Positions 14,971 to 34,607 of a stretch of 64,000 nucleotides of DNA are shown here, piece by piece. Source of the DNA: an uncultured Acidimicrobiia bacterium (GTDB taxonomy: Bacteria > Acidobacteriota > Terriglobia > Versatilivoradales > Versatilivoraceae); contig CAWBAT010000006.1 in NCBI GenBank assembly GCA_963786955.1, positions 128,001 through 192,000 of the forward strand, in the 5' to 3' direction. Position 1 is the first letter of the stretch; each line of letters begins with the position of its first letter. The translations under genes were made by a program, and so were the position numbers. A model generated the notes under the pieces. It searched no databases and was not told where the DNA came from. It saw only the letters and a program-made list of their open reading frames with translations.

Positions 14971-15009
14971 GAATAATTGAAATTCGCGCTTTTTTGGCGT
15001 GCGATCCAA

Positions 15010-15393: not shown

Positions 15394-15477
15394 TGGCCGT
15401 ATTACGGCGTACTCGGGAACTGACACGTGTTCGAAAGACAAGCTATTCTCAGTTTCCGGTTACGCGACTACGCAACC
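15394..15477 (+). repeat. Island palindromic element, copy 1 (subfamily A)
   Basis: TGGCCGTATTACGGCGTACTCGGGAACTGAC...AGTTTCCGGTTACGCGACTACGCAACC. Confidence 0.85.
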
Positions 15478-15507
15478 GCTGAATGGATCAGTAAAGCTAC
15501 GGCGTTA

Positions 15508-16446
15508 CTATCGAGTGCCGGTGAACCCGCGCTTCGACAGAGCGTCTCGGAGTGCGTGCAGAACTGCCTCACACTTAGGAATCACTTTTCCCTTTTCGTT
15601 CAGCGAGAGTGCCAGCGAACGCACATTCGTGTTGCGGCGCGAAAGGGAAATGATCTCTTGGTTGACAACCATGAATCGGTCCAAAGCGGCATTGGCAGCG
15701 ACGATCTGTGGCTGGAACCTGGGCTCAACGAGGGATGAGAGCGTTGTCAGTGCGTTCCGCCCGGTCGCCTCCGACGTCGCCATGCTTTTCTCCATGCGCG
15801 TCATGACTGCCTCGTCGGCATCCGCAATATGGGGCGCCTGAAGCACCTGAATCTCCCGAACCGTTGCGACGGCGGTTGCGACGAGCGCTTCGACGCGCCA
15901 CTTATCCGCAGGGACTCGGGGGGCAACTGGCTTGAGGGAATCGCGGAAAGAATCAGCTGCCTCCTGCGCGGGGCCGAAAGAAAGGCGCTGGGCCTTGAGG
16001 TTAGTATTCTCGACAGCCAGGTCGAGAATGCGACGATCCAGCTCACAATATTCCCTAAATCGATTGACGAATTCCTGGAGCAAACGGCCCTCGTCAGAGT
16101 AGTGAAGATCTTCGAGAAGGGGTTTTAACGAGTCGATGTCTATCTGGACCTTCTCCTTTGCTTGTTCGGCTTCACGAGCAAACGCTATGGACGCTTCGTC
16201 AGTGTCTGCCATCACGGCTTTGTTAGCGGTATCAGCGGCCTTGGTAAATTGAACGAGAAGATCTGCGGCAATGTGGCGTGCCTGCGACACCCGCTGCAAA
16301 GCAGAATTGACGTCGCAGCCAATCATCGCACCCAAGGAGAAGACCATCAGGGCCATCCAGCTCGCCCCGGCTCGGGCGCGAAACAACGCCAGGGAACTGA
16401 CTGCTCGACCGAAACGCACCTTCTCCAAAATGCCAAAAAATAACAT
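15508..16446 (-). CDS. Putative lipoprotein resembling a stand-alone four-helix-bundle (MCP-type) ligand-binding domain; start uncertain
   Basis: Hydrophobic segment ending GAMIGC, then all-helical duplicated modules. No cytoplasmic signalling domain. Confidence 0.65.
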   Translation of the reverse strand: MLFFGILEKVRFGRAVSSLALFRARAGASWMALMVFSLGAMIGCDVNSALQRVSQARHIAADLLVQFTKAADTANKAVMADTDEASIAFAREAEQAKEKVQIDIDSLKPLLEDLHYSDEGRLLQEFVNRFREYCELDRRILDLAVENTNLKAQRLSFGPAQEAADSFRDSLKPVAPRVPADKWRVEALVATAVATVREIQVLQAPHIADADEAVMTRMEKSMATSEATGRNALTTLSSLVEPRFQPQIVAANAALDRFMVVNQEIISLSRRNTNVRSLALSLNEKGKVIPKCEAVLHALRDALSKRGFTGTR

Positions 16447-17018
16447 GAGCAGAGTCTCACCGCCGCGGACAGGGATGAACAAGAGAAATTTGTTCACGTG
16501 AAGGCTTCTGATGGAACCACGAGGACCCATTCTCGCAGCTTTCGTTAGCGCCAGGCCGTCCAAATGATCTACTAATTCTCTTTTCGAATCGAGTACATGG
16601 CATCGCGGATCTGAAGCGACGCCGCCCAAGTCGGTACTCGTCGAAGCCCGAACTAAAAGTCGTACTTTGCTTGCCCCGCAACCAGCCTTCGCCCTTTCTT
16701 TCTGTCTCGGCTTTCCCGATTAGCTTTTCCGTTGGGTCAGTTTTGTCGTGCGTTCACTGCATTGCCCACTGAATCGTCCTAGTCTACCAGATTCTTGCCA
16801 CCAAGCCTGGCGAATCTCCGGGCAATCTTCGGGTTGGGAAGAGGTGCCCGATACGCCGGTAGGATATTTCAAAAAAGGTCAGTGAAACTTGGCTTGCTGA
16901 AACAAGCCGGAAAGTAACCGTGAATCCCACGTGCCTTGGCTGGGTTCAGCCCGTGCTGGCTTCGGGGCCAAACATAGGTCCTCATAAGCCACCCAGTATT
17001 TACCAAGACCAAGTCAAG

Positions 17019-17101
17019 TTGACGTATCACGGCTACTCGGAAACTGACACCTGCTCGGAGGAGCTACAATTTCAAGTTTCCGATTACGCAACTATACATT
17101 C
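17019..17101 (+). repeat. Island palindromic element, copy 2 (subfamily A)
   Basis: TTGACGTATCACGGCTACTCGGAAACTGAC...AGTTTCCGATTACGCAACTATAC. Confidence 0.8.
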
Positions 17102-17160
17102 ATCTAAACGAACAATAGGCCTTTCGGGATCCAGACAAAATAAACAAATGATATCCCACT

Positions 17161-18295
17161 TATACACAGCGTCATAAATACTTGCGCATAACAAAAAGTT
17201 CCGCTATCCTTGACGTATCTTTCGGTCAAGGGGGCGGATCGTGCAAAAGCTGAGCATCGAGAATCCTGACATCATGCGAATTGCACTCCAGCAAGAGATT
17301 GCCCGGTCTGAAGAATCTCGTTACGATCACCGGCTGCACGGGATCTTGCTGGTGTGCGCGGGGAGAAGCTGTTATGAGGTGGCCGAACTGCTGGGCCACA
17401 GTCCTCGAACTGTCCAGAACTGGGTGGCGCGTTTCGACCGCAGCGGTTTTGCTGGCCTGCAAGAGGAGGAACGTCCGGGACGACCGACGGGACTGGACGA
17501 AAAGTCTCGCCGTCGAATTGGTCAGGATCTGCGACACTCGCCGCGCGATTTGGGGTACTCTCAGAACCTCTGGGATGGCAAACTGCTCAGCCACCATCTC
17601 GAGCGAAGCTTCGGGGTGGGATTGGGTGTTCGCCAATGTCAACGGCTGTTTCGGCAGTTGGGGTTTCGGCGCCGCAAACCCCGACCGCTGATTGCTCAGG
17701 CCGAGCCGGGGGCCCAACAGGCATATAAAAAAACTCCGACGTCTGGCCGCAAGAAAGGACCTGGACATTTGGTTTGAAGACGAATGCCACTTTACACAAC
17801 ACGGATCACGCTGTGCCATGTGGGTTCCTCCAGAGGACGTCGATCCGATTGTACTGCACGCTCCCACCCGCAAGAGTGTGGCGTTCTTTGGAGCGGTTTG
17901 TGCCGGGGACGGCCGCTGGGCCAGTCAAGCGGCAGAGACGTTTAACGCGATGAGCTTTCAGGCCTTTCTCAGTTACCTGTTGCGGAGGTATCGGCCCAGA
18001 CGCCAAATGGTGGTGGTGGTCGACAATGCTCGCTGGCATCACGCCCGTCAATTGCGGCCGTGGCTCAAAGAATATCGCAAACAGTTGCGTCTGGACTTCC
18101 TGCCACCCTACAGCCCAGACTTGAACGCGGTGGAACGTGTTTGGAAGTTGACGCGGCGCTTGTGTACCCATAACCAATACTTCGCGGAATTGGATGAATT
18201 GCTTGAGCGGGTTCAAGATCAGTTCGATTTTTGGACGAAAACCCATAATCAAGTCCTGCACACTCTATGCGCAATTATTTAAGACGTTGTGTATA
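17161..18295 (+). mobile_element. IS630-family insertion sequence (coordinates include the TA duplications)
   Basis: TIRs TATACACAGCGTCATAAATACTTGCGCATA and TATGCGCAATTATTTAAGACGTTGTGTATA enclose a two-ORF transposase. Confidence 0.93.
17241..18282 (+). CDS. IS630 transposase, OrfA + OrfB joined by a probable -1 frameshift at A7 (17727-17733)
   Basis: HTH OrfA. OrfB has WFEDE, VVDNARWH and FLPPYSPDLNAVERVW (DDE). Confidence 0.92.
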
Positions 18296-18399
18296 GAAGC
18301 AGTGCATGGTACAAACCGACGACGTCGCAACCAGGTTTTCTGCATCCTTTGAGTGGATTCGATTCAAGAAGGTCCCACGCCGTTCGTTTGCATCGAGCT

Positions 18400-18483
18400 G
18401 GTGGCCTTCGAATCTGCAAAGGTACTCCAGGGGGCTGACATCTCAGTACCCTTCCCCGCGTGAGAATGAGCATCAATAATTAA
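18400..18483 (-). pseudogene. N-terminal fragment of an amidohydrolase-family gene
   Basis: LIIDAHSHAGKGTEMSAPWSTFAD contains the DxHxH metal motif, then the similarity ends. Confidence 0.5.
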
Positions 18484-18795
18484 ATCGGTTTTTACATCGG
18501 TCGACTTTGCGTCCAATCTTTTGAAAATCGTGGCACCCCAACTACGGTAAACATTTGTTTCAACCACTTACGGCGTTTCTTTATTGCACCTCCTAGTGCT
18601 ATTACAAAATTGTATTACCGGGGACCAATTCGCCCCTACAGGAAGTCTCAAGTGAATTACCCAGGATGTACTCGGACCCTATATTAACTATCCTATTCAT
18701 TCTGTTGCAGGAGACCTGCACAAAAACCCCTTCAAAGATGGCAGCAAAAGTGTCTGGTTACTAGGAGTTCTGCCTTTTTACATAAAGGGGTTACT

Positions 18796-19902
18796 ATGAA
18801 GTACAACCAGCCACTTGTATTGGTCTCATTGCTCTTTTTCTGCATGTGCCGCTGGTGTCTCGCATCAACTTGCGACTTCAATGGGGACGGAACCACCAAT
18901 GTCATGGATTTGCAGATGTTGGTCAACGGTATTCTGGCCTCATCGACCTCCAGCAGCTTGGATATCAATCAGGACGGCAAAGTGGACGTTCTCGATCTCC
19001 AGCGATTGGCAAACGTGATCCTGGGGATCCAGTCCTGTCCCGGACAAGGAGGGGTTTCACCTCAAATCGAAGGCGTCGAGATATTCCCTCCTGACAACCC
19101 CTGGAACCGGGATATTTCCAATGACCCGGTTGATCCAAACTCGGCCAATTACATAACCAACATGAATGGCGGGACCAAGTATCTTCATGCTGATTTTGGT
19201 TCGAATCCGGATTACGGAATCCCCTTTGTCGTAGTTCCCGGAACCCAGCCTAAAGTCCCAGTGGTTTTTGACTATGCAGACGAGAGCGATCCGGGGCCAT
19301 ATCCTATTCCGCCCAATGCGCCCATTGAGGGTGGCGCCAGTTCTAGCGGAGACCGCCACGTCCTGGTTCTCGACAAGGACAACCACAAACTCTATGAGAC
19401 CTTTAGTTCCTATTACGTTGGCCCGGGATGGCAATGCGGGTCAGGAGCCATCTTCGATCTCACCTCAAACAGTCTGCGTCCCGACTATTGGACTTCGGCA
19501 GATGCCGCAGGCCTTCCGATCCTCCCCGGCCTTGTCCGCTACGACGAAGCTGCGGTTGCCGGCGAAATCAGGCATGCAGTCAGGTTCACTGTGGCCCGCA
19601 CCCAAAAAGCCTTCATTCATCCGGCGACTCATTATGCGAGCAGTTCTACCGAACCCAATTTGCCACCCATGGGACTCCGTGTTCGATTGAATGCCAACTA
19701 CGACCTCACCCGCTTCACTGGCGCTGCCCACGCCATCTTGGTGGCCCTCAAGAAATACGGCATGTTACTGGCTGACAACGGATCAGACTGGTACATCACG
19801 GGAGCCAGTGATCCCCGCTGGGACGACAATGATCTGAACCAGTTGAAGACTGTCCCAGCCAGCGCCTTCGAGGTGGTGCAGTCAGGGGCAATCATCAAAT
19901 AA
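18796..19902 (+). CDS. Secreted protein with a dockerin-type Ca-binding repeat and an uncharacterised C-terminal domain
   Basis: Signal peptide, then DFNGDGTTNVMDLQ / DINQDGKVDVLDLQ, then FPPDNPWN...ADAAGLPILPGLVRYDE. Confidence 0.82.
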   Translation: MKYNQPLVLVSLLFFCMCRWCLASTCDFNGDGTTNVMDLQMLVNGILASSTSSSLDINQDGKVDVLDLQRLANVILGIQSCPGQGGVSPQIEGVEIFPPDNPWNRDISNDPVDPNSANYITNMNGGTKYLHADFGSNPDYGIPFVVVPGTQPKVPVVFDYADESDPGPYPIPPNAPIEGGASSSGDRHVLVLDKDNHKLYETFSSYYVGPGWQCGSGAIFDLTSNSLRPDYWTSADAAGLPILPGLVRYDEAAVAGEIRHAVRFTVARTQKAFIHPATHYASSSTEPNLPPMGLRVRLNANYDLTRFTGAAHAILVALKKYGMLLADNGSDWYITGASDPRWDDNDLNQLKTVPASAFEVVQSGAIIK

Positions 19903-20009
19903 TCGGTCACTAGACAGCTCACTTCGAGTCCAAAGTTCACGGTCCAATGTCCAAAGTGACCAAGCTGTTCTTCAAATGAGCCTGGTCTGCCGCCGGCGAC
20001 TAACTGCGT

Positions 20010-20713
20010 CATTTCTCCCTGGACCACAAAAATCGGGCATTACCCGCGGATGGTTTTCCGCACTCACCGGCCAGGGAAGGTGTGAAAAAATTGGCTGTAG
20101 CGGCGCTCTATGAGCGCCGCTACTTTTCATTTCAACGGCTTGGCCGGCGCTCATAGAGCGCCGCTACAATTTCTTCACACCAGTGTGCCAAGGGAGAGTG
20201 GCAAGTCATCGCGGATGCTACTGCCCCTCGAAACCCAATGTTATCGCGCAGTTGTCCGCAGACACTACGGACTACCGGTTTCCTTTGGCCATCGCCAACA
20301 ACACGACCTACAAAGACCCCGACATGTCTGTCCGTTTCAAGACGATTTCAGGGAAGGAAGACCAGGGAGCCGGTTTGGTGTGGCGGTACTGGGATGCCAA
20401 CAACTACTATATTGTCCGGGCCAATGCACTCGAAGACAATGTGGTCCTCTACAAGGTGGAAAACGGCAAGCGTATCTCGCTGGCCCCGAAAGGGACACCG
20501 GTGAAAACCTATGGCATAAAGACAAAGGTTCCCGGAAATACCTGGAACAAGCTCAGTGTAAAAGTGATTGGGAATCTATTCACTGTTTCGTTTAATGATC
20601 AGAAGCTTTACGAGGTAGAGGACAACAGCTTTACTCAAGCAGGCCATGTCGGCCTCTCGACTAAAGCGGATTCAATTATTCACTTTGATGATTTCACATT
20701 AGACAGTAAGTGA
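20010..20713 (+). pseudogene. Concanavalin-like / DUF1080-like secreted protein, 5' part degenerate and interrupted by a MITE
   Basis: ALTGQG lies before the MITE and AKGEWQVIADATAP after it. Then DYRFPLA...NNYYIVRANALEDN...FDDF. Confidence 0.65.
20079..20181. repeat. MITE with GGTGTGAAAAAATT/AATTTCTTCACACC ends and a GTAG REP doublet
   Basis: Internal TGTAGCGGCGCTCTATGAGCGCCG and the inverted CGGCGCTCATAGAGCGCCGCTACA. Confidence 0.8.
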
Positions 20714-20828
20714 GCGGAGCTTCCGACTTGCATCTCTGATTTCCTCACCGGACCGAGGGGAAAATCGATATGCCCAAGTGATCTTTGTTCCGCTGATCAG
20801 TTTGAGTCAAGGCAACAAAGAGTTCACC

Positions 20829-20911
20829 ATACTTATAACGCCGTTATCGGAGACTGACAGCTGCTCGAATGGGCTACCATTTCATGTTTCCGGTTAGCCG
20901 ACTACACAACC
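20829..20911 (+). repeat. Island palindromic element, copy 3 (subfamily A)
   Basis: TATAACGCCGTTATCGGAGACTGACAGCT...TGTTTCCGGTTAGCCGACTACACAACC. Confidence 0.85.
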
Positions 20912-21039
20912 ATTGGATGGCCGTCAGTCGTCCTGGTGGAGCCTACAAGGTTTTGATTTTATTTGGAGACACTCCTATTACCCGCCGTCGGGCGCATTTT
21001 CTATCCTGCTGCGGTTCAAAAGCATATAATATTTGAACT

Positions 21040-21135
21040 GTGCAGGGTTTTCTAGTGCCTGGTCCCGATGCTCTCTAAAGGCTGCAACCATTGAGATTCC
21101 TAACCATCGAAGCGTCTCTATAATGCCCACGAGTG
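21040..21135 (-). pseudogene. Possible 5' remnant of an integrase-core (rve) transposase
   Basis: AAFREHRDQALEN resembles the FRSRRDLALENLAL N-terminus of such transposases. Very short. Confidence 0.35.
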
Positions 21136-21201
21136 CCGAGTAAACAGGGTAAATTATCATTAGTTTTTGAGCGGATGGAGTTTTTGCGAAGGAAGGTGTG
21201 T

Positions 21202-24200
21202 ATGCGCAAGCTGAATTTTGTTCCGTTATTTCTGTTTATTGCTTTTGCGTCATTCTGGGCAAGCGCGCCGAATTCGACGCCGAACCTGACGAAACAGCCT
21301 ACCCTCTATGTCGTCCCTTATGCCCACCTCGACACGCAATGGCGGTGGGATTACGTGCAGACCATCAATGAGTATCTCCCCGCTACTATGCATGACAATT
21401 TCGTGCTCTTCGAGAAATACCCGCACTATGTATTCAACTTCAGCGGCGCCAATCGCTATCGCATGATGAAGGAGTACTATCCGGAGGACTACGCCAAAGT
21501 AAAGCAATATGTTGCCGCGGGACGATGGTTCCCATCCGGCTCCTCAATGGAAGAGAGCGACGTGAACTCACCGTCGGCAGAGTCGCTGATCCGCCAACTC
21601 CTATACGGCACGCAGTTCTTCCGCCGCGAATTCGGCAAGACCAGCGCCGAGTATATGCTGCCCGACTGCTTTGGCTTTCCTGCGTCGCTCCCGAGCATCC
21701 TGGCGCACATGGGTATAAAGGGCTTCTCAACCCAGAAACTTTCATGGCATTCGAGCGCACGTGTAGGGGGGCCGGGTTCGCCGCAGGATACGCCCCAGGG
21801 AATCCCGTTCAACGTCGGCTACTGGGAAGGCCTCGACGGCAAGGGCGTCATTGCAGCCTTGAACGCCACCGATTACGGGTCCGACGTTACCGAAGACCTC
21901 AGTAAAAGCGACACTTGGCGCCATCGCGTGCAGAAGAATGGGGACTCGAGCGGACTCTTCGTTGATTACCGCTATTATGGTACCGGCGACATGGGCGGGG
22001 CTCCCCGGGAAGCCTCAGTGAAGGCAATGGAAGCGATCTTGACAAGGACGGCCGCGGTGTTTCCGAAGCAACATTCCGACAGCGAGCAAGCGCCACCAAC
22101 AGAGGCCAGTCACGCTGTGCAGGTTGGCGATGGACCACTCACGGTCTTGCAGACGACAGCTGAGCAAATGTTCATTGACATTCCCGCAGAAAAGATCTCG
22201 GCGCTGCCGAAATATAAAGGCGACCTCGAACTGACGGAGCACTCAGCGGGATCATTGACATCGCAGGCTTATATGAAGCATTTGAATCGCAAGAATGAAT
22301 TGCTGGCGGACGCCGCCGAACGCGTGTCGGTTGCCGCCGCCTGGCTCGACGGACGCGTATACCCGCAGCAGCGCCTGAACAACGCATGGACGCTCGTCAT
22401 GGGCGGACAATTTCATGATATCATTCCCGGCACGAGCATCCCGAAAGCTTACGAATATTCGTGGAACGACGAAGTGCTGGCAATGAACCAATTCGCAGGC
22501 GTGCTGACCAGCGCAGTCGAGGCGGTTGCATCGGGGATGAACACGCAGGGCAAGGGGACGCCGGTCGTTGTTTACAATCCGCTGGGTGTGGAGCGGGAGG
22601 ATGTGGTCGAAGCTACTGTTGCATTGCCTGCTGAAACGAAAACTGTCCGCGTTCTCGCACCCGACGGCAGAGCAACTCCAGCGCAGTTGGAGAAAGGGAA
22701 CAAGGTCTTGTTCCTGGCCAAGGTGCCGTCGGTTGGATTCTCAGTATACGATGTGCAGCCCGCAGACACCGGCAGTGTGCCTTCAGCGCTAACGGCGACT
22801 GCATCATCGCTGGAAAATGCGCGCTATCACATCAAGCTGGATCAAAACGGCGATGCGGCCGGAATCTTTGACAAAAAGCTAAACAAGGAACTGCTCGCCG
22901 CACCCGCCCGGCTGGCCATCAAAAACGACAAGCCGGAAGAATGGCCGGCATGGAACATAGACTGGGCCGACCAGCAGAAGCCGCCTCGCGCGTACGTCAG
23001 CGGACCTGCAAAAGTGCGCGTCGTCGAAAGAGGGCCCGTGCGCGTTGCCGTCGAGATCCTGCGCGAAACGGAAGGATCGCAATTCGCGCAAACCATCAGG
23101 CTGTCGGCAGGCGATGCCGGCAATCGCGTCGAGTTCAGCAACGTTATCGACTGGAGAACCAGCTCGGCCAACCTGAAAGCTACGTTTCCTCTGACCGCGT
23201 CGAATACGATCGCGACTTACAACTGGGATGTCGGCACAATCGAACGCGGCAACAACGACGAGAAGCAATATGAAGTTGGATCGCATCAATGGTTCGATCT
23301 TACCGATAAAAGCGGCGCGTTCGGTGTTACCGTACTCTCCGATTGCAAAACCGGTTCAGACAAGCCCGACGACAGTACACTTCGGCTGACTCTGCTGCGT
23401 ACTCCGGGAATCAGCGACTGGGGGTGGTGGCTCACCGACCAGGCAACTCAGGACTGGGGGCGGCACAAGATCTTCTACGGACTGATGGGGCACGCCGGTG
23501 ATTGGCGCCGGGAACAGAGCGACTGGCAGGCATTACGCCTCAATCAGCGGTTGATTGCGTTTAGCACAACCAGGCACGCGGGCGAGCTCGGCAAAAGCTT
23601 TTCGCTTTTGAAACTGAGCAGTTCCCGCGTACGCGTGCTGGCGGTCAAGAAGGCCGAAGAGAGCGCTGATATCATCGTGCGTCTTGTCGAACTCGACGGC
23701 AAGACGCAGCAGAACGTAAGCGTGACATTCGCGGCCCCTATCGCATCAGCGCGTGAGCTGAATGGCCAGGAACAACCGCTGGGCCAGGCATTGGTAGATA
23801 AAGGCGAGCTGCGGATAGACTTTGCGCCGTATCAGCTGCGAACATTTGCGTTGAAGCTGGAGACATCAAGCGCAAAACTCGCTCCGCCAAACTTCCGGCC
23901 GATTGTTCTCGCTTATGATCAGGCGATTGCGAGCCTCGACGGCACAAAATCACAAGGCGGTTTCGATGCAGCCGGCCGGGCGTTTCCGGCCGAGATGCTG
24001 TTGCGCGACTTGGCATTTGGCAGCATCCACTTCCAGCTCGGACCGGCAACGGAGCGGAATGCCGTCGTGGCACGCGGCCAGAGTATTGCGCTGCCTGAGG
24101 GACAATTCGCGCGTGTGTATGTGTTGGCGGCCGCCGATGGTGATCAGAAGGCCACATTCTACGCGGGCAAGAAAGCGGTCGAACTGACAATCCAGGATTG

Positions 24201-24570: not shown

Positions 24571-24667
24571 CCTGGCCAGTGAAGATGTCTTGCCCGAAAA
24601 TGACGCTTGGCTATCCGGAATTGGTAAACGGTCCAGATACGGCGTTGTGAGATGTAGCGAAGTCAAG

Positions 24668-25023: not shown

Positions 25024-26811
25024 ATGAATTCGACCGCACACCGCTTGACCTTTGCACTTCTTGCCCTGCACGGGATCCTGCTTCTCGTCACACTGCCGGA
25101 TTACTTTGTCAGCATCGATTCGGGTTACCACGTGTCGCTGGCGCGCTGGTATGGCGAACATGGTACTGCCTGGTGGGACCATATCAACTATGGCCCCGGC
25201 GGTCGGCCGAATCTGCAGGGCCCGCTGATGCACATGGCCATCGGGTACCTGGGCCGCATGCTGGGCGGCGACGGCATGGATTATGTGCATGCCAATGCGA
25301 TGCTAGCGCTGTTTCAATGGGCGGCCGCCATGTTTACGGCTTGGTTCTTCGCCAGGCGCTGTGGGGGCGATTGGGCTGCGCTGTTCACCATCGCGCTGCT
25401 TTCCGGTGCGCTGTTCGCTTCGATCTCCTTCGCGGTTGGCATCCCTTCCGGCTGGATCTTCATCTTCTCGGCATGGGCGGCCTGGTATTTCGTCGAGGGT
25501 CGGCTGCCGCTTGCCATCCTGTTCACAACAGCTGCCATCTATACGCATCTTGGGGGTTACGCGATGGCGCCGGTGGCCGTGTTCGTCGCGGCGGTGATTA
25601 CCCGCAGGTGGAGAGCTCTCGTAATCGTGGGGGCTGCAACGGCGATTCTCACCAGCCCGTATACCGTTCATTTCCTGGGCAACCTCGAGTGGTACCGCGG
25701 AAGACGCGGTGACGAGGCTCTGATGCTAGCTCCGCTCACCTACATCCCTGCCGCCTTCGGGATCGTTCAGCTGCTGCGCGAGCCCCGCAAAAACGTTTTC
25801 CTGCTGGCATGGCTCGCGGCCCCGACGGCCTGGATCGCGCAAGACTACAAGAGATTCCTGCTGCAGGCACCCCTCGTGCTCGCAGTGATCGCCGGTGTCG
25901 AGCTCGCCAGGATGCGTGAACAGATAGCGCCTCGGTTTCGAAATGCCTTTGTGGCCAGCCTGGTTGCGCTCGCCACAATCTTTCCTCTGACGCTGCCCGC
26001 CTGGGCATTTGAGCTGATGTGGAATTTTGGCCCGCGCAGCCCGCGGATGCTCGACTGGAACGAACGGAAACAGCTCGCGGAGGTGATCGGCCGCGCAAGT
26101 TTGAACGATCGGCTCGTAAACGTGTGGAACCCGACGCAGTGCATCGCGATGGCCGTGTTTGTACCGATGATGTTTGAGGGCGGCCACTGGGTAGAGGTTC
26201 AGCCGCGCGTGTATTCCGCGCGGCTGCTTTCCGCTGGCGTGAAGGTCTACGCGCTCCCCGTCCCGCCGGACGATCCGGTCCTCCGCGATCTCGCAGGAGC
26301 GGGTTTTCTCACGATCCATGGTGGCACGTCGCTGAACTCGATCACGACACTGAACGGTCCGGCGCCACTCGAGGCCGCGGCCCGGAGCTTGGCGCGCATC
26401 GGAGCCCAGGAGGCTGACTGGCTGGCAAAATACTCGGAGAACAACCGCATGCCGAGTGTCAGGGAGTTGCTCTCGGTCGAGGCCGTGAGGCGTTACCGTT
26501 CCCGCGCCCGCGAGCAGCGGACCCGCGCCGGCCGGATTAAGACAGCCATCCTGGTGTACGCGTATGCGCTCGAAAAGGATTACCCGGACCATGCGCGCGG
26601 AGCACGCGGCTCAGCCGACGGTTTCGGCGAACTGGCGAACCTTCTGGGGGACGAAGCAACTCTCGACTTCCGGACCGAAGCCGATCACCGGCAGCTCAAG
26701 GCCAACCTTGCCCAATTTGCGCGTGAGATCCGTTGTTTCGATACACAGGTGTTGCCCACCGCTGAAATGGACCGTATCAACCAAAAGGTATTCCACGAGT
26801 ACTTCCGGTAA
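25024..26811 (+). CDS. Polytopic membrane protein, possibly GT-C-like, with a soluble C-terminal domain
   Basis: Intact 595-aa ORF with about 10 hydrophobic segments and a DSGYH loop after TM1. Function is inferred only. Confidence 0.7.
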   Translation: MNSTAHRLTFALLALHGILLLVTLPDYFVSIDSGYHVSLARWYGEHGTAWWDHINYGPGGRPNLQGPLMHMAIGYLGRMLGGDGMDYVHANAMLALFQWAAAMFTAWFFARRCGGDWAALFTIALLSGALFASISFAVGIPSGWIFIFSAWAAWYFVEGRLPLAILFTTAAIYTHLGGYAMAPVAVFVAAVITRRWRALVIVGAATAILTSPYTVHFLGNLEWYRGRRGDEALMLAPLTYIPAAFGIVQLLREPRKNVFLLAWLAAPTAWIAQDYKRFLLQAPLVLAVIAGVELARMREQIAPRFRNAFVASLVALATIFPLTLPAWAFELMWNFGPRSPRMLDWNERKQLAEVIGRASLNDRLVNVWNPTQCIAMAVFVPMMFEGGHWVEVQPRVYSARLLSAGVKVYALPVPPDDPVLRDLAGAGFLTIHGGTSLNSITTLNGPAPLEAAARSLARIGAQEADWLAKYSENNRMPSVRELLSVEAVRRYRSRAREQRTRAGRIKTAILVYAYALEKDYPDHARGARGSADGFGELANLLGDEATLDFRTEADHRQLKANLAQFAREIRCFDTQVLPTAEMDRINQKVFHEYFR

Positions 26812-26837
26812 GTTGCGACGCCCACCCGCAATGGCTC

Positions 26838-26918
26838 TGGTCGTATTACGGCGTAACCGGAGTTTGAGGAGCTGTCGAACGGCATTGGCTCCCAATCTCC
26901 GGTTTATCGACTGTTGAG
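26838..26918 (+). repeat. Island palindromic element, copy 5 (subfamily B)
   Basis: TGGTCGTATTACGGCGTAACCGGAGTTTGAGGAGCTGTCGAACGGCATTGGCTCCCAATCTCCGGTTTATCGAC. Confidence 0.85.
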
Positions 26919-27169
26919 GATTTATGCCAAGGACTCAAGGCAAACCTTGTTGAATCAATCTCGTGTACCCTGATAAATTCGCGACTGTGCAACTCGGTCT
27001 CAAAACGAAATGAAATAAGGATTTCTACACAAGCATTACGTCAATTCTGCCATTTGCCTTTCAGCCTGAACTGCAATAGTTTTGTGTAGTGAGATTTTTT
27101 ATGGCTACCGTGGAAGTGAGGCAGGCGTACTCTCTCCGTCGCGATTCCCACCCAATAAGGAGCACACTT

Positions 27170-29484
27170 ATGAAGATGAACTCTTTCCTCCTCTTCGCTC
27201 TTCCTGTCTTTCTCCTGTGCGGCTTTCACACCAATTTTTCCTTTTCACTGCCTCGTCAGGAGCGAAGCCCCGATCCCTTTCAGAACGGATTTCTCTCGGC
27301 TGAGATCAAGATGTACAACGGTGCCCCAACTCTCTTCTTGGATGGAAGACCTGTGTTCTATGGTGCATGGTGGGTTTCTCCCCCCACAAACGAGGGATGG
27401 GCTGCCTCCGATGTTACGAAGATGAACGCGGTGGAGACAGGCATTCACATCTATGCTTTCGACGTCGGTTCGACGGAGTGGTGCGGTCCCGCTTGGGGCC
27501 GACTAGCCCACTACGATTTTTCTACCGTACAAGCGCGATTCAATCGAATCCTTGAAGCAGATCCCAAAGCCCTATTTCACTTGCGAATCAACCTCGAGAT
27601 GAGCGAGCCGCAGTCCCAATGGTGGCACAATCTCTACCCGGAAGAACGGGAGATCCTCTCCGATGGTACTCCACACAGACAGTCCTTCGCGTCCGCCGTG
27701 TGGCGTGAACAGGTAAAGGATTTTCTACGGGCATACGTCGCTCATCTTAAGAAAATCGGTGTCTTCAATCGCGTTGTCTCTTATCAGGTGGGAGCCGGTC
27801 ACACAGGCGAATGGGTGAAAGGCAAGCTATCGATGTTCTTCCTGACCGGTGACTACAGCAAGCCGATGAAGCGTCACTTCCAGGCATGGCTGCGAGAGCA
27901 CTACAACAATGATGAAGGAGCGCTGAGGAAAGCATGGAACAAACCTGAGTACAGTTTTGAGATTGCGGAAGTTCCCTCAGGCCTCGAGCAATTCGAAACA
28001 AAGCAGATGACGTTCCGCGACCCGAATCAGGAACAGAACGTCATCGACTACTACCTTTGTCTCGCAGATCTCTGCGGAAGCCTCGTCGTCGACTTCTGTC
28101 GCACGGTGAAGGAAGCGACCGGAGGTAAAGCTCTAGCGGGTGCTTTCTTTGGCTATCTGATGGAGCTTGCATGGAATGCAGGTTTCTTTGCCGAGGGACC
28201 GGCAAGTCCGTACTCGACGTATCAACGGAGCGGACACTTGGGGCTGGGACACGTTCTTGAATCGTCCTCTGTCGATTTCCTGGTGAGCCCATACAGTTAT
28301 GGCTTCCGCGGCATCGGGGGCGAAGGATGCAGCATGCTCCCCACAGAGTCGCTCCGCCTCCACAACAAGATCTACCTCATGGAGGATGACACACGCACTC
28401 ACATGGATAATGATCCTGCTTATGGACGCGCGCGCAATCTGGCGGAATCACGTACGATTCTCCGCCGCAACTTCGGCTACGTGGCCACTCACGGACAAGG
28501 GCTCTGGTGGTTGGTGAACAAGGGCGCAGTGGAGAGCAGTCTCGAGCCCGCATTCACCCCGATGCTCAAGGAGTTTCAGCAGCTGGGTAACTTCGCGCTC
28601 AAAACAGACCGGTCGCCAAGCGCTGAGATCGCCGTGCTTCTAGATGATGAAAGTTTCTTCTACGAGACGGTCCGGAATGAGCTGGACGTGCCGCTGATCT
28701 TCCACCAGAGGCTGATAGGGCTTCCCCGTTTGGGCGCTCCCTATGACGTCTATCTCCTCAATGATTTCATCAAGGGCCGGCTCCGGCCCTACAAGCTCTA
28801 CATTTTCCTGAATGCGTTTAGATTGGATGGGACCCGGAGAGAGTCTCTGAAAAACAGCGCAAGGATGGCCGGACAGCAGTGTGGATCTATGCCCCCGGGT
28901 ACATCAAGGACACAGCGTCAGTCGAACACATGAAGGATCTTACCGGTTTCACTTTTGTGGAGAACAGCCATCCGTGGCCGAGCTTCCTCCACATCACGAA
29001 TTTCAATCATCCCATCACGGCTCGTCTTCCTCAAGATCTCTTCTGGAACACCGACAGCTACCTCGGTCCGCTCTTCCATCTGGCAGACAGCGACGCTCAA
29101 GTGCTCGGCGACGTCGTTATCGCGCAGGGGACTTGCCAACCCGGATTTGCAGTCAAGGCGTTCCCAACCTGGACATCGATCTATGTGGCAGTACCGAACA
29201 TCCCTGCGCAAGTCTTGAGGGGAATCGCCCGTTTTGCCAAAGTCCACATCTATAACGACGAAGGCGATGTGCTGGATGCAAGTCGGAACCTGCTGAGCGT
29301 CCATACCGTCTCAGGCGGAGAACGAACCTTCAACTTGCCTTCGAAGGCCGAAGTTGTGTATGACCTTTTCGAAAGGAAGGTCATCGGCAGAGATACGGAT
29401 CGCTTCAGGGTAACGCTCTCGCCGGGTTCAACGGCGCTTTACTTCGCCGGCAAGGAGTCGCTCATTGTGCAATTTCGAAAATGA
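27170..29484 (+). CDS. Secreted beta-galactosidase-like glycoside hydrolase (GH42-like; apparent frameshift near 28860)
   Basis: Signal peptide, GHTGEW, LRKAWN, DFLVSPYSY, EDDTRTH, and a trimerisation-like C-terminal region continuing in 28879-29484. Confidence 0.75.
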
Positions 29485-29519
29485 AGCCCGGGTCGCCCCC
29501 GCGCCGAACAAGAAGGAAA

Positions 29520-29612
29520 CTCGTAGGCGGACAACAGGTCAGCGCTTGCCAGCCCGATGCGGCACGCAGCGCCGGTGACAGGGGCTACACGAGCTGTGAG
29601 GTTCACCTTCAT
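29520..29612 (-). pseudogene. N-terminal fragment of an SDR oxidoreductase
   Basis: MKVNLTARVAPVTGAACRIGLASADLL is a decayed VTGAxxGIG motif, truncated after about 30 codons. Confidence 0.6.
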
Positions 29613-29678
29613 CCTGCTACCAGACTGGCATCCTCGAACCAGCAAGTTCAACCCGCGTTTTGTTCTTTGCGCATGAGT

Positions 29679-30749
29679 TCAAAGCTGGTCCGCCCATGGC
29701 GTTGGTGTCAGCAACCTTTTCGCCACTTGTTCGATCTCTAACCGGGGGCCACGAAAGGCCCACACCTGCGCTGCGTCCTCGCACCTCGTCTGTCCCGTGC
29801 CGTAGCCGATGGCTGGGATGTGGTATTCCAGTTCGCTGAACGCGCCGAGCTGGCTGTTCACGTTGCAGGCCTGAACCGCAAAGCCGAAATAGTCGGTTTC
29901 CCTCCAGGGCACATCCACGTACTCACCAGATGGGTTCACGAGAAGATTGCGGATGATCAGCGCCCAGCGGTCGCCCGTCTGGTAGAGGTAGCCGATGCGA
30001 TTGCAGATGGACACCGCGCGAACGCTAATCTTGTGCTCGCCTTTTTGTCTCATGCGATAGCGGATCAAGCGGTCGGTCGTAATCAGATCCTCAGGCGGGA
30101 TCGTTCCCAACGTGCTAAAGATGTGGCGCGGTTCGGTGCGGCCGAACGTGGGCATCAAGAGATCACCTCCATGTGGCATCTGGATGAGATTCCAGAGGCC
30201 AACCTGGTCATGCGTGCGGCGGCTCGCACCGAGGAGTGCGAGCGACGTGTACTGAGTGTAACCGGCATAATCGACGCCTTGAAGCTTTAGCCCCCGTTCG
30301 TGCCGCAACGGGTTCGACGCCGGGCCAAAGCTTTTCGTGATCTTCAGGTTTAAGTTCTTCTTTGACCGTGAGAAGTTCACCGTGAGGCGGTTTACCAGTT
30401 TGATTCCGTCCCGGGTTTCAACCACTTGGTAGCTACCAGGATCAAGTGAACGCTGCTGGAAGTACTTGTCGAGGTTGGGAAAGTTTGGGAAAAACAAGTC
30501 GACCTCGGGTCCAAGCCAGGTGCGGTCGCCGCCGGAATTGTGCCACTGGTCGCTCGCATAAAACTCCCTGGCGGCCTGCACCGTCTCCAAGGCCGTGTTT
30601 GTCCAGTAAAAATTCTCGTGGCTGTTGGCAGAAAACAGGCCGAGCACGCGGCCACCGTAAGACAGCACGAGTACCCTCGTGCCGTCAGGGGTGTGGTAAA
30701 GCTCCGTCGGTTTGCCAACCTTGCGGAGGACGTCGACAAGTTTTTTCAT
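29679..30749 (-). CDS. Hypothetical protein, DUF6786/mutarotase-like
   Basis: YGGRVLGL, WHNSGGDRTWLGPE, FSELEYH. Co-oriented with the sugar transporter. Confidence 0.7.
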   Translation of the reverse strand: MKKLVDVLRKVGKPTELYHTPDGTRVLVLSYGGRVLGLFSANSHENFYWTNTALETVQAAREFYASDQWHNSGGDRTWLGPEVDLFFPNFPNLDKYFQQRSLDPGSYQVVETRDGIKLVNRLTVNFSRSKKNLNLKITKSFGPASNPLRHERGLKLQGVDYAGYTQYTSLALLGASRRTHDQVGLWNLIQMPHGGDLLMPTFGRTEPRHIFSTLGTIPPEDLITTDRLIRYRMRQKGEHKISVRAVSICNRIGYLYQTGDRWALIIRNLLVNPSGEYVDVPWRETDYFGFAVQACNVNSQLGAFSELEYHIPAIGYGTGQTRCEDAAQVWAFRGPRLEIEQVAKRLLTPTPWADQL

Positions 30750-30763
30750 GGCACGGAACTCGG

Positions 30764-31804
30764 TCAGGACTTGGCCAGATTGCTGGAATAGGCCATGATA
30801 ATTGCGGCAATGATCAGAATGATGATGGCCGTGTACATCTGCCGGCGCGGCTTGCCCTGCACGCCGCGCCACTCGCCGCTGATGAATCCGAGGCCCTGTC
30901 CGCCGAGCATTTGCGACGCCTGCTGGATGCCGAAGCCGACCGAGGCCCCCAGCGCTCCGAACAGCAACATGCCTTTACCCATCAGCACAATGCCAAGGGC
31001 CATGTTCGCGCCGATGATCGCGGCCAGTCCGAGTTCTTTTCCACTCCGCGCGAGCACACCCAACGACTTGTTCCTGGCCATCAGGTAAAGCGGATAGATC
31101 AGATTGATCAGTGCGCCACCAAGCAGACCCACGGACCAGACGGCGAACGTGGCCGGGACATCACCTGCACCGTTGGCTTTCATGGCGGCAACGATCGGTC
31201 CCTGTCCATAAACAAAAGCCAGCGCCATTCCGCAGGAAAGAACCCCCGCCACAATCGTCATCACGAGTCCGCCGGAAAAACTACCTGAGGTCTGCTGCAG
31301 ATTCTGCAACAGCGCGTCTCGACCAAAGCCGGCCAGCGACGCAAATACAACGCCAACAAGCATCACCGCCACCCCGGCCAGCGCCGTCAGTCCGGCGGGT
31401 GAGCCGAGGTCCGGCGCGTCCTGGAACAGGCCCGAACCCTTCACGATCATCGGCACCGTCACACCCACCGAAACGCCCAAGCCGGTAAGGATGGCCCCCG
31501 TGAGCGCCACGCCGATCCGCACAAAGCAAAGGCCGCACAACACGTTGGCTACACCCCACCCGGCGGCCCACAGGTTAGCTGTGATCAAGCTCCGGACCGG
31601 TACCCGGCCGTAAGCAGAGAAAGCCCCGGGACACCCCAGCAATGTCACGGTCCAGGGGACGATCACCAAACCGACTAACATGCCAATGAACCACCAGTGC
31701 TCAAACTGGAACTTCTTGATCAGTTTCATCGGCCAGGCACCGCTGCCGATCAACAGGCCCGCAAAAGCAACGAGCACGATTCCTAGAAGCTGAGCGGATG
31801 ACAT
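30764..31804 (-). CDS. L-rhamnose/proton symporter RhaT-like (DMT superfamily)
   Basis: About 10 TM segments, WPMKLIKKFQFEHWW, C-terminal GEWRG. Confidence 0.8.
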   Translation of the reverse strand: MSSAQLLGIVLVAFAGLLIGSGAWPMKLIKKFQFEHWWFIGMLVGLVIVPWTVTLLGCPGAFSAYGRVPVRSLITANLWAAGWGVANVLCGLCFVRIGVALTGAILTGLGVSVGVTVPMIVKGSGLFQDAPDLGSPAGLTALAGVAVMLVGVVFASLAGFGRDALLQNLQQTSGSFSGGLVMTIVAGVLSCGMALAFVYGQGPIVAAMKANGAGDVPATFAVWSVGLLGGALINLIYPLYLMARNKSLGVLARSGKELGLAAIIGANMALGIVLMGKGMLLFGALGASVGFGIQQASQMLGGQGLGFISGEWRGVQGKPRRQMYTAIIILIIAAIIMAYSSNLAKS

Positions 31805-31897
31805 GGTGTTACTTTCGCTCGTACAGACCTTTCAAACTCTGGACACGCAGCCTTGGCCGAAATGCGCGCTAGATTCGTTGCGGAAGTCGGAGATGAA

Positions 31898-32150
31898 CTA
31901 GATCCGGGACGTCGTGCCGCCGTCCGCAATTATCATCTGGCCGATGAAGTTGCCAACATCCTCCGAGCAGAGAAGGACCGCGAGCTTGACGATCTCGACC
32001 TTCTCGCCAGATCGGGCGCTCGGCATTTTCTCCGCCGGAACCTCGCACGCGTCCGCGTCGCTGAAGCCGAAAATTCTCTTGTAATATTTTTCCACAGTCA
32101 CCCAGCCGGGGGCAATGGCATTCAGACGAATTTTCTTGTGCCGTAGAGTC
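31898..32150 (-). pseudogene. C-terminal fragment of an SDR oxidoreductase
   Basis: KIRLNAIAPGWV...FIGQMIIADGG. No N-terminal half. Confidence 0.7.
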
Positions 32151-32282
32151 AAAAAACTCGAACGAATTGACAAGGCATGGTTTACACGCTTCCCCTCTTA
32201 TCCCTTAAATTACCTTTTTTCCATCCTCGGATACAGTCTACAATCCCGACTCACTAACTCGTTTGAGACTAAAAGGATTGGA

Positions 32283-32420
32283 ATAGATTGGTCTCGACTG
32301 CCGGCCTGTATCAGCGGAACGGTTGACCATGAATTGCTGTTATGCAATAAATGTCTCGCTGCCGAAAATCAGATTCTCAAAGCCCGGATCCGGGATCGAT
32401 TGCTACTTCCCGACGCTGAG
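32283..32420 (+). pseudogene. 5' remnant of an integrase-core transposase
   Basis: DWSRLPACISGTVDHELLLCNKCLAAENQILKARIRDRLLLPDAER, cut off by the next element. Confidence 0.65.
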
Positions 32421-32865
32421 AGAAATGGGGTAGAAATGGGGTCACATCTTTAGAAATGGGGTCATAGAAATGGGGTCACATCTTTCTTTTTTCTAAATAT
32501 TTCAACGCCTGTTTCAGCACTCTTTTCAGCTTTGGGTCCTCGCTGTGACCTGCTTCAAACTCACGGGGATCGCCCGACTATGGTTGCGCTCGCTCGTCTC
32601 CACCCCCAGGTGAAAATGATTGTCCGTCCGCACATAGCACCAGGGCCGAAGCTAGAAACGCTCGCTTGGTTCGGCCAGTAATGCGCGAAAATTCAACCGG
32701 TCAATCTCGTCCCGGTAAAGGACGCGGCGTTCATTGCCACGCGCTGTTACGTGGTAACAACTGCCGGCCAGATGGATCCGCAAGGGTCGGCTCATCAGGC
32801 CCCATCTTGTCTCCGCAGCGAGAACTCGTCAATCCATTTAAGAACAAAGAAAGATGTGACCCCAT
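32421..32865 (-). mobile_element. Internally deleted Y1/RAYT-type (IS200-like) transposase element with 20-bp inverted repeats
   Basis: ATG at 32795 gives MSRPLRIHLAGSCYHVTARGNERR..., an internal stop, then DNHFHL (HUH). ATGGGGTCACATCTTTCTTT at 32470-32489 is inverted at 32846-32865. Confidence 0.8.
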
Positions 32866-32973
32866 ACTCTCCCTCGGACCACGGGCCTGTCTGGCTACAA
32901 AACACATGAGGATGACAGACAAGGTTGGCTGCATATCATAACCCACCGCCAAAAAAAAATCAGGCCGTCGCGC

Positions 32974-34320
32974 TTAATGGCCGCCCATCGGGCGGCCGCT
33001 GGTCATCGACTCGCACTTGCTCAGTTTCGGCCAGGCGTAACCGTAGAGGGACACGAAGGCGAAGCAGGCCAACGGCACTACGAAGGCGCGCGACATGCCA
33101 TAAAGATCGCCGACATGGCCCATCAGCTTGGGTAGGATCGCGCCGCCCATAATGGCCATTACGATGAAGGCCGAGGCCTTCTTGGCCCGGAGGCCCAGGC
33201 CGTGGATACCCAGAGCGAAAATGGTCGGAAACATGATCGACATGAAGAAGTAACTGAGGAACACGCAGATCACCGAGAACCAGCCCAGTTTGAGGACCAC
33301 GAGCAGGCAGACCATGACGTTAATCAGGCCATATAGGCCCAGCACCTTGTGGGCGGCAAACTTCTTGAGGATGGCAGCGCCGCTGAACCGGCCGGCCAGA
33401 AAGCAAACGAAACCGAGGGAAGCCAGATTGGCAGCACCCTTGTCGGACAGCGTGAGGGAGCCCGCCTTGCCCGCTTCAAACCAGTTTCTTAGGGTGCCGG
33501 AGGTCCACGCATCCGGAACCGGCGGCGTTTGCGACGTCATGTAGTTGATGAAGAAGCTGAAGATGCCGGCCTGGGCGGCCACGTAAAGGAATTGAGCCGC
33601 CACCGCCATCACGAAGTGCGAATGCGTCCAGATGGAATGAGAGGCATTCGACATGGAATCGTCCAGGTGGTAATCGTCCTCCATTTTCACTTCCGGGACA
33701 GGGGCGAAGTAGAAGATCGCGGCCAGGATGATCACCACCACACCCACAGCGGCGTAGGGAATCCACAGCGTCTGCGCCGCGGTGCTCGCGCCGCTGGCGT
33801 CCTTGCTGTAGAAAAACGCGGCGCCAGCAATGGGACCGAAAATCCAGCCGATGCCGTTGCAGGACTGGGCGAGATTGATGCGGGTGGCCGCGAAGCGCAG
33901 GTCTCCGAGCACCGTAGTATAAGGGTTGGCAACCGTCTCGAGGAAGGTCAAGCCCGCGGCGATGACGCACACGCCGAGCAGGAAAGCCCAGAAAGAAGCG
34001 ATTTGGGTCGCCGGGAAGAACCAGAACCCACCCACCGCCACCATCAGCAGACCCACAATGATGCCGCCTTTGTAGCCGAGCTTCGTAGCCAGCCAGCCGG
34101 CCGGCAGCGCCATCAGAAAGTAGCCGAGGTAGTGCGCAAACTGCACCCAGGCGGATTGGGCCAGCGTCAAGTGGAGTTCGCTCTGAAAGTGCTTGTCCAT
34201 CACGTCGATCATGCCGTTGCAGAAGCCCCAGAGCAAGAATAACGAGCTGACGAGGATGAACGTGACCACCACGTTCGTACCGTCAGCAAGAACGAACATG
34301 CTTTTCTGTTGATCGCTCAT
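32974..34320 (-). CDS. fucP: L-fucose:H+ symporter-family MFS permease
   Basis: SLFLLWGF, FLETVANPY, RINLAQSCNGIG, FLYVAAQ, MSIMFPTIFALG. Confidence 0.88.
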   Translation of the reverse strand: MSDQQKSMFVLADGTNVVVTFILVSSLFLLWGFCNGMIDVMDKHFQSELHLTLAQSAWVQFAHYLGYFLMALPAGWLATKLGYKGGIIVGLLMVAVGGFWFFPATQIASFWAFLLGVCVIAAGLTFLETVANPYTTVLGDLRFAATRINLAQSCNGIGWIFGPIAGAAFFYSKDASGASTAAQTLWIPYAAVGVVVIILAAIFYFAPVPEVKMEDDYHLDDSMSNASHSIWTHSHFVMAVAAQFLYVAAQAGIFSFFINYMTSQTPPVPDAWTSGTLRNWFEAGKAGSLTLSDKGAANLASLGFVCFLAGRFSGAAILKKFAAHKVLGLYGLINVMVCLLVVLKLGWFSVICVFLSYFFMSIMFPTIFALGIHGLGLRAKKASAFIVMAIMGGAILPKLMGHVGDLYGMSRAFVVPLACFAFVSLYGYAWPKLSKCESMTSGRPMGGH

Positions 34321-34523
34321 TATTCTTTGTCCTTTCGCCAGGTTGTGAGGCGGGCAGACTAGCAGACCCGGCCCGACTTCGTCAAACACGTAAGCAAACC
34401 TGTAAGCAAACCTGTCCTTCAACAAGACCCCATCCGCTCCAATGTGAACTAGATCCGTAACAGAGGGTTTTCGTCCGGCACAATCACCCAGATTTCGTGC
34501 TCCCTTGTGGGATGGCGTTCCAT

Positions 34524-34607
34524 TGGCCGTATTACGGCGTCATCGGAAACTGACAGCTCTGCGGATGGGCTACCATTTGAAGTTTCCGGTTAGCCGACTA
34601 CACAACC
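34524..34607 (+). repeat. Island palindromic element, copy 6 (subfamily A)
   Basis: TGGCCGTATTACGGCGTCATCGGAAACTGACAGCT...AGTTTCCGGTTAGCCGACTACACAACC. Confidence 0.85.

Follow-up and report, generated by a model that had tools for sequence, protein, structure and literature searches.

What marks the borders between unrelated gene modules in a genomic island when imperfect palindromes of the same family, all in one orientation, stand between them? The question is raised by a stretch of 64,000 nucleotides (the window; positions 128,001 to 192,000 of the forward strand of contig CAWBAT010000006.1, GenBank assembly GCA_963786955.1) from an uncultured bacterium that the GTDB lineage places in the Acidobacteriota. 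Its genome is referred to here as G000 (5.65 Mb, nine contigs; the window is a stretch of contig C6), and a genome of the same genus as G002. Six palindromes of about 82 bp are found on the + strand of the window, inside a 22-kb island bounded by a direct repeat of the 3' half of a tRNA-Thr gene. A first-pass annotation of the sequence took them for folded, single-stranded sites of the attC or Xer type, served by a tyrosine recombinase. The reading towards which we lean, with confidence somewhat better than even, is that each palindrome consists of two transposon end-repeats placed tip to tip between adjacent cargo cassettes, and that the units were moved by transposition.

The six palindromes

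The palindromes, called junctions here, are the following, with scores from a covariance model trained on these six copies:

15394-15475, + strand: junction 1; left arm, 25-nt centre, right arm; 89 bits
17019-17100, + strand: junction 2; 84 bits
20829-20910, + strand: junction 3; 83 bits
24668-24749, + strand: junction 4; 80.5 bits; subfamily with GGAGAT-type arms
26838-26919, + strand: junction 5; 78 bits; same subfamily as junction 4
34524-34605, + strand: junction 6; 95 bits

All six copies reported by the first-pass annotation were recovered at these positions, intergenic, flanked by long open reading frames (ORFs) and in the same orientation. Their mean column identity is 70%, and the two subfamilies that had been proposed reappear as pairs in an internal BLAST comparison (junctions 3 and 6, 87% over 79 nt; junctions 4 and 5, 88% over 65 nt). 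While the window copies score between 78 and 95 bits, the rest of the window has no comparable score, and the genome-wide covariance search added a diverged copy of full length (C3:319622-319708, 39 bits) and a partial one (C9:297657-297738, 23 bits); nhmmer and a fuzzy motif scan found a few lone half-copies elsewhere in G000. The earlier statement that the element does not occur outside the island is thus correct for the window and nearly so for the genome. In a genome of 5.65 Mb, chance would come nowhere near placing six co-oriented copies within 19 kb.

The 82-bp elements are genuinely, though moderately, palindromic: pairing is seen in 87.5% of the 96 arm cells, compared with 22-44% when the partners are slid, and the single-strand folds of the copies (z-scores of -0.6 to -4.1) represent a modest gain over shuffled sequences. 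At the gathering threshold, Rfam recognizes in the window only a tRNA and a c-di-AMP riboswitch, and a scan of positions 15000-35000 with E-values up to 1 produced no match on the repeats, so that they correspond to no RNA family in that database. The earlier remark that the AAC/GTT boxes typical of attC sites are absent needs correcting: GTAAC and GTTAC boxes are not invariant in the window, but in the wider family of these elements they are the majority state. They sit there within further pairing and not at the outer edge of the site.

The arms as ends of solo cargo units

In a consensus built across genera, both arms are conserved, as inverted copies of each other, and the centre between them is variable. 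In other Acidobacteriota, the same arms of about 40 bp occur singly, with their tips pointing outward, around one or a few unrelated cargo genes. A solo unit of this kind is located in G000 at C4:156183-158335, where a right arm (156183-156240), a gene for an SSF transporter and a left arm (158290-158335) follow one another with the tips outward. The syntenic region of G002 (contig C14) has the same flanks with about 200 bp instead of the 2.2-kb segment, and hence represents an empty site.

A scan for an exact 16-mer of the arm core over 185,579 genomes returned at least 117 loci, many of which are chance singletons in other phyla. Among the matches listed, 17 loci, nearly all of them with Acidobacteriota in the title, carry an inverted partner 0.5-4 kb away on the side distal to the tip; a partner at kilobase distance on the tip side is present at only one or two. 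Again among the matches listed, the arm core of the Acidobacteriota-titled loci is followed by a conserved tip of 9 nt. The cargo of the solo units includes an aldo-keto reductase together with a SnoaL protein, a POTRA protein, the SSF transporter, and membrane or secreted proteins whose function is not assigned; some cargo has no Pfam match.

Target duplications were assessed for 39 candidate pairs, a set that includes chance pairs, with mismatched left and right flanks as the control (n = 1482). Perfect 8/8 duplications flank five of the 39 pairs (L145, L151, L212, L221, L231) and five of the 1482 control combinations; five further pairs have 7/8 duplications, and 39 of the 1482 controls reach 7/8 or better. 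In four of the five perfect cases, the duplication is separated from the core by exactly 9 nt on either side. Because inverted pairs flank unrelated cargo with 8-bp duplications, we regard the arms as the ends of transposable units; since the duplicated octamers are of arbitrary sequence, they point to transposition with a staggered cut, and not to conservative site-specific recombination. Judged from these sequence patterns, the arms are terminal inverted repeats of about 40 bp, of a family present in Terriglobia-type Acidobacteriota, and delimit non-autonomous cargo units making 8-bp duplications.

A proposed reading of the palindromes as tip-to-tip junctions

The arms of the junctions match the ends of the solo units, and their cores lie 24-26 nt apart. 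In genus g26 the centre parses exactly into a 9-nt tip, 8 nt and a second 9-nt tip, and these tips resemble those of the solo units. The tips point towards each other within the 82-bp elements; the palindrome can therefore be understood as the place where one unit finishes with its right end and, after a short centre, its neighbour starts with its left end. In this arrangement, what appears as the left arm of a junction would be the right-end repeat of one unit, and what appears as its right arm the left-end repeat of its neighbour. The units themselves would be non-autonomous cargo cassettes of the mobile-insertion-cassette kind, with a transposase supplied in trans, and the island would be a head-to-tail chain of five to six such units inside an old, tRNA-Thr-bounded island. 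Such a chain might grow when new units, always in one orientation, insert beside a resident end, either at the 8-bp centre or into it; each insertion would copy the centre, and the junction left or created would be what is inherited.

Distribution, orientation and reshuffling in related genomes

The covariance model (E-values up to 0.01) finds the element in 13 of 61 related genomes, G000 included, with 21 matches in G002. Counts of the arm core far exceed those of a reversed-pattern control in G002 (35 versus 3), G004 (22 versus 2) and G016 (11 versus 1). The distribution of this end family across the phylum is patchy and not phylum-wide. Neighbouring copies no more than 30 kb apart are on the same strand in all 25 pairs, which come from six genomes, in a count from which the weaker reverse-strand match at each place had been removed beforehand; the nearest neighbours on opposite strands are 30.3 kb and 36.8 kb apart. 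The clustering and strict co-orientation seen in the window thus extend to its relatives. The gene downstream of an element lies on the same strand in 15 of 33 cases and on the opposite strand in 18, according to crude ORF calls.

Two blocks of the window recur in G002 in a different order and beside different neighbours, which bears out the suggestion that modules are shuffled. Positions 26837-29553 correspond to G002:C11:244073-246793 at 94% nucleotide identity, and a complete junction follows 37 bp further on in G002; positions 34849-36868 correspond to G002:C11:221279-223299 at 92%, after which G002 continues with a conserved subterminal flank, termed family A here, and a junction. The copy on G000:C3 is chimeric: the left flank of one G002 locus and the right flank of another are joined inside its left arm. 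A 402-aa cargo gene that is 99% identical at the nucleotide level between G045 and G053 has kept one junction beside it in both genomes and yielded no clean comparison of an insertion. No clean empty site was present in G000 for any of 22 G002 copies; in one instance (G002 C1:154620), both flanks are found in G000:C7, where 189 bp including one arm are missing.

Other small repeats with empty sites occur in these genomes as well. A repeat of about 103 bp at window positions 20077-20179, upstream of a lectin-like gene, has at least eight copies in G002 and is absent from the otherwise 93%-identical segment G002:C8:160800-161392; it looks like a separate family resembling miniature inverted-repeat transposable elements (MITEs), with an empty site. 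The comparison of G000:C4 with G002:C14 further revealed a 168-bp insertion (L116, 609-777), of which copies with 97-99% identity occur elsewhere in G000, and a multi-copy element of about 660 bp (L116, 1749-2413).

Points that weigh against the transposition reading

Several observations do not sit easily with the interpretation of the palindromes as abutting transposon ends. The analysis found no cognate transposase, and in no case did the arms enclose a transposase gene as their only cargo. IS256-type genes are present, but their ends are without arms; the counts are none of five genomes each for the ISL3 and IS66 types and none of three genomes for the IS1595 type, and arms are absent from all nine loci of the IS4/IS5 type. 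The 8-bp duplications are confined to solo units of other genomes, and the duplication of the G000:C4 unit is at best degenerate (6/8, offset). In the window, the centres of the junctions measure 24-25 nt instead of 26, and their tips are unlike the canonical ones; moreover, the last unit has no closing left arm in the window, and nothing unit-like lies to the left of the left arm of junction 1. A strict 29-nt pattern of the ends was detected in only two of 401 genomes of an even, phylum-wide sample, and one of the two is G000 itself.

The structure of the junctions poses a further difficulty. Their central 8-mer (NTCGRANG-like) is conserved across arrays of different genomes, whereas the duplications around solo units are arbitrary. 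Subfamily changes in one arm of a junction recur in its other arm (82.4% paired, a value reached by none of 500 shuffles, in a model-fitted alignment that includes reverse-strand rows), and the two ends of one unit often differ in subtype, as in units 3 and 5. Given the shared 8-mer and the arm subtypes matched within junctions, each junction seems to be passed on as a whole, an outcome that would not be expected from simple independent insertion. The simple form of the proposal, in which every junction arose from an independent insertion into a random target, was therefore discarded, as central 8-mer and arm subtypes are common to different arrays. It is possible, and in our estimate rather doubtful, that we are dealing with a transposon-based counterpart of the integron: cassettes with differentiated ends would enter the 8-bp centre of a junction as a landing pad, in one orientation and with the centre being copied, and would thereby form co-oriented chains at tRNA-linked islands, while single cassettes would also move to arbitrary sites and be flanked there by 8-bp duplications. 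The work would be done by a transposase that is unrecognised or resident in the host, with its gene outside the cassettes, and the conserved junction would also serve as a target for IS110-family elements and group II introns.

Alternative explanations

In attC sites, an outer box ending in AAC is matched by a partner starting with GTT, the crossover takes place at the far end, and the cassette carries almost the whole site at one end; dif-type sites are 28 bp long, with two 11-bp arms recognized by XerC/D around a 6-bp centre. A dedicated system of a related kind, in which two inverted recombinase-binding arms surround an asymmetric crossover centre and circular one-site modules integrate and excise with the help of a recombinase encoded elsewhere, would account for the strict direct orientation of all 25 neighbouring pairs, for an asymmetric central 8-mer that is conserved across arrays, and for the covariation of the two arms of one site. 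The solo arrangement of right arm, gene and left arm is, in addition, the product expected when such a circle integrates by a crossover in the centre; in several genomes the arrays have tRNA genes nearby and integrase genes or fragments at a distance of 2-17 kb; and IS110-family elements and group II introns, both of which parasitise attC sites, are found beside the arms. Against this stand the 8-bp duplications of unrelated sequence around solo units, given that conservative exchange makes none at arbitrary targets. True integron integrases (TIGR02249, above cut-off) are encoded by 11 of the 61 relatives, yet the covariance model had no match (E-values up to 10) in 136,395 bases from 11 loci beside intI genes or fragments, and the canonical attC sites of the integron array of G003 (L070, G003:C34) show that true attC sites of this bacterial family look different. 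The island of the window has no integrase gene, no tyrosine recombinase is encoded within it or within the 50-kb array of G002:C11 (218-272 kb), and the only intI sequence of G000 is a truncated fragment of 146 residues (G000:C4:289913-290350). The modules, furthermore, contain several genes on both strands. Membership in integrons or in clusters of attC sites lacking integron integrases (CALIN) was rejected, since solo units carry a half-site at each end, the boxes are internal, and there is no link to intI. We consider a dedicated site-specific recombination system of this type unlikely. Of the cassette-capture idea put forward in the first-pass annotation, the delimitation of modules, their shuffling, the clustering and the co-orientation stand; the recombination mechanism finds no support, as the duplications point to transposition.

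Selfish palindromic repeats of the MITE or REPIN kind could have spread as whole elements into permissive island DNA and been shuffled by ordinary homologous recombination. Complete arm-centre-arm elements do form subfamilies common to unrelated contexts, the genomes are rich in other small repeats with clear empty sites (window 20077-20179 against G002:C8; L116 609-777), the copy on G000:C3 is recombinant inside an arm, and G000 has 18 matches to Y1 (HUH) transposases. Yet the 22 G002 copies lack clean empty sites in G000, the 82-bp elements show no duplication at their flanks, their inward tips are the reverse of what a deletion-derived MITE would present, and random insertion does not give tight clusters with 25 of 25 pairs co-oriented; the repeats are thus not ordinary scattered MITEs. 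A link to RAYT proteins was likewise abandoned, because none of the ten Y1 loci that could be placed, out of the 18 matches, is flanked by arms within 900 bp. We attach a low probability to this explanation. Less probable still is a cis-regulatory or structural role, be it as promoter or operator, as a hairpin RNA of the 5' or 3' untranslated region (UTR), or as a polar site of chromosome organisation that follows replication. Junctions 3-6 are situated 170-275 bp upstream of + strand genes, the RNA folds modestly better than shuffles, and in G053 and G045 the orientation is uniform over hundreds of kilobases with one switch per contig. The direction of the downstream gene is, however, unrelated to that of the element, and with 15 of 33 genes on the same strand a promoter or 5' UTR function was dismissed; nor do the repeats match Rfam at E-values up to 1, and arms that occur as inverted pairs around cargo with target duplications are not what such a role would lead one to expect. 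Comparisons with GC skew are inconsistent between contigs, as C6, C3, C4 and C7 of G000 fit one rule of orientation and C9 does not, and in 20-kb windows of G053:C2 and G045:C2 the skew is too weak and noisy to place a switch.

Elements probably nested at the arms

Genes of other mobile elements occur close to the arms. IS110-family genes are found directly inside an arm in three loci (L132, L175, L195), in each case reading away from the tip, and this placement suggests site-specific targeting of these ends. An IS30-like gene is present in L218, and two units of G000 have IS630-type genes near their right arms. The IS110-, IS30- and IS630-type genes within units look like nested insertions. 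An IS630-type transposase was considered as the mobilising enzyme and rejected: the element has 30-bp ends of its own, and the two IS630-type genes near right arms share no nucleotide similarity. No parent insertion sequence with the same ends was found in G000, and the DNA behind the lone arms on contig C9 is not repeated.

In G002, a group II intron of 1.9 kb with a 464-aa reverse transcriptase/maturase (Rfam RF02001 and RF01998) is positioned exactly at the right-arm boundary in two loci (L022, 1857-3794, on G002:C11; L024, on G002:C18), and a third copy lies directly against a lone arm in L149; two other G002 loci, at contig ends, are empty at the intron position. The target of the intron is a small hairpin located 6 nt past the right arm; the 82-bp palindrome itself was discarded as a target, as the intron sits after this hairpin instead.

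The island and its cargo

The remaining features of the island are as follows:

15010-15085, + strand: tRNA-Thr (CGT), from ARAGORN and Rfam RF00005 (73.5 bits); the island's left boundary repeat is formed by its 3' half
15040-15094, + strand: left copy of the 55-bp direct repeat (tRNA 3' half); self-BLAST, 84% to 36968-37022
15186-15255, + strand: left copy of a second repeat family, R2, just inside the boundary; resembles 36858-36925
15323-15393, + strand: family A subterminal flank, conserved; precedes the left arm of junction 1
15476-17018, no strand assigned: unit 1 cargo; lipoprotein-like four-helix-bundle protein (15508-16629, - strand)
17161-18295, + strand: nested IS630-family insertion sequence with 30-bp inverted ends (17161-17190 and 18266-18295)
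18796-20713, + strand: unit 2 cargo; dockerin-domain protein (18796-19902) and 3-keto-disaccharide-hydrolase/lectin-like protein (20183-20713), from Pfam
21133-24570, + strand: unit 3 cargo; GH38 alpha-mannosidase (Pfam Glyco_hydro_38N, 38C and Alpha-mann_mid)
25024-26811, + strand: unit 4 cargo; 595-aa protein without Pfam match
26920-34523, no strand assigned: unit 5, composite; 614-aa and 201-aa proteins (27089-29484), 94% nucleotide identity shared with G002
29679-30872, 30764-31804 and 32974-34425, all - strand: remainder of unit 5 (Pfam); DUF6786, RhaT-like and MFS proteins
34861-36807, + strand: unit 6 cargo; NmrA-like protein (34861-35811, Pfam) and 328-aa protein (35821-36807)
36858-36925, + strand: right copy of R2, just inside the right boundary
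36968-37022, + strand: right, degenerate copy of the tRNA-Thr 3'-half repeat, from self-BLAST; end of the island

As had been noted before, the modules between the copies are unrelated, and their Pfam cargo differs from unit to unit. The protein of unit 1 has a weak match, below cut-off, to Pfam 4HB_MCP_1 and a homologue in G004 (84% nucleotide identity) without arms nearby. The transposase gene of the nested IS630 element, a single copy in G000, is split into two frames (17241-17777 and 17692-18282; Pfam HTH_32/HTH_29 and DDE_3). Both window copies of the R2 repeat (about 70 bp) are in direct orientation, and R2 is found at no fewer than nine other sites in G002, some at contig ends. The family A flank also precedes lone left arms at G000:C4:~30090-30186 and at several sites of G002 and G016. 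Within unit 5, a pair of 28-bp inverted repeats (93%; 32470-32497 and 32838-32865) surrounds about 400 bp, and the 280 bp beside it (32140-32420) recur at many sites of G002, G004 and G001.

A second plastic locus of G000 lies beside a tRNA-Asn gene at C9:288-308 kb (L033), where a right arm, 254 bp from the tRNA gene, is followed by 6.9 kb of cargo that contains an intact IS630-type gene, by a left arm and by a fragment of an integrase of 201 aa. Outside the island, the window contains a phage-type integrase that lies in three pieces and has an internal TGA (2706-3218, - strand; G000:C6:130706-131218), about 12 kb upstream of the island. A NuoN-like gene seems to be divided between two overlapping ORFs (13087-14145 and 14009-14308, + strand), both with Proton_antipo_M, which could reflect a frameshift or an assembly error. 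The c-di-AMP riboswitch (ydaO/yuaA type; 50015-50180, + strand, 89 bits) is located about 11 kb downstream of kdpA (38838-40667).

Relation to known systems and significance

Mobile insertion cassettes (MICs), or transporter insertion sequences, carry passenger genes between inverted repeats of the insertion-sequence or Tn type and are moved in trans; MICs of the Tn3 type in Xanthomonas are reportedly the subject of one paper. The units described here resemble MICs in having inverted end-repeats around genes other than transposases, target duplications and diverse cargo, with most units devoid of a transposase gene. They differ in that their ends match no insertion sequence for which a transposase was found, in the 8-bp duplication, and in being chained tip to tip in one orientation with the junction palindrome itself conserved. 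Integron arrays and CALIN have in common with them the co-oriented imperfect palindromes between unrelated, often small genes of unknown function; they differ from the present arrays, which have no associated intI, do not share the sequence and box pattern of attC, are accompanied by arbitrary 8-bp duplications and hold the gene between outward half-sites instead of beside one 3' attC.

Tandem Tn7-like arrays at one attachment site and the abutted-end junctions of IS21- and IS30-type tandem dimers show how repeated orientation-specific insertion into one target beside a resident element leads to head-to-tail chains, with junctions made of an end, the duplicated target and a second end, as proposed here; none of their genes is linked to the ends studied, however, the chained units have no transposition genes, and the duplications of those systems (5 bp, and 2-8 bp, respectively) are said to differ from the 8 bp found here. 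The pdif modules of plasmids in Acinetobacter and integrated elements that exploit Xer are likewise delimited by short sites and reshuffled without a recombinase gene of their own. No 28-bp dif-like architecture was found in the present elements, to which no dif model was applied; they have arms of about 40 bp and a centre of about 8 bp between 9-nt tips. Sites of the pdif type alternate in orientation, whereas those described here are all direct, with target duplications that point to transposition. The REP and REPIN sequences associated with RAYT proteins are, similarly, intergenic doublets of imperfect palindromes of about 80-100 bp, and G000 has many Y1 genes; the elements at hand differ in their low number (about eight copies per genome), their clustering in islands and the absence of arms around the ten Y1 genes examined. 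In a full-text literature search, no description of this element appeared at the level of titles and abstracts.

Co-oriented palindromes between modules should, in our view, not be called attC-like before solo half-sites and target duplications have been looked for. Acidobacteriota are abundant soil bacteria, and the exchange of accessory genes among them is poorly understood. If the units indeed form a working family of cargo cassettes, their ends would provide a sequence handle on mobile accessory genes across Terriglobia-type genomes; among the cargo recorded here are glycoside hydrolases and transporters, along with many small proteins of the secreted or membrane type. The missing transposase might represent a family not yet described, and, should the interpretation be true, these chains would represent a second, transposase-driven route to integron-like arrays, which would be of general interest for the biology of mobile elements.

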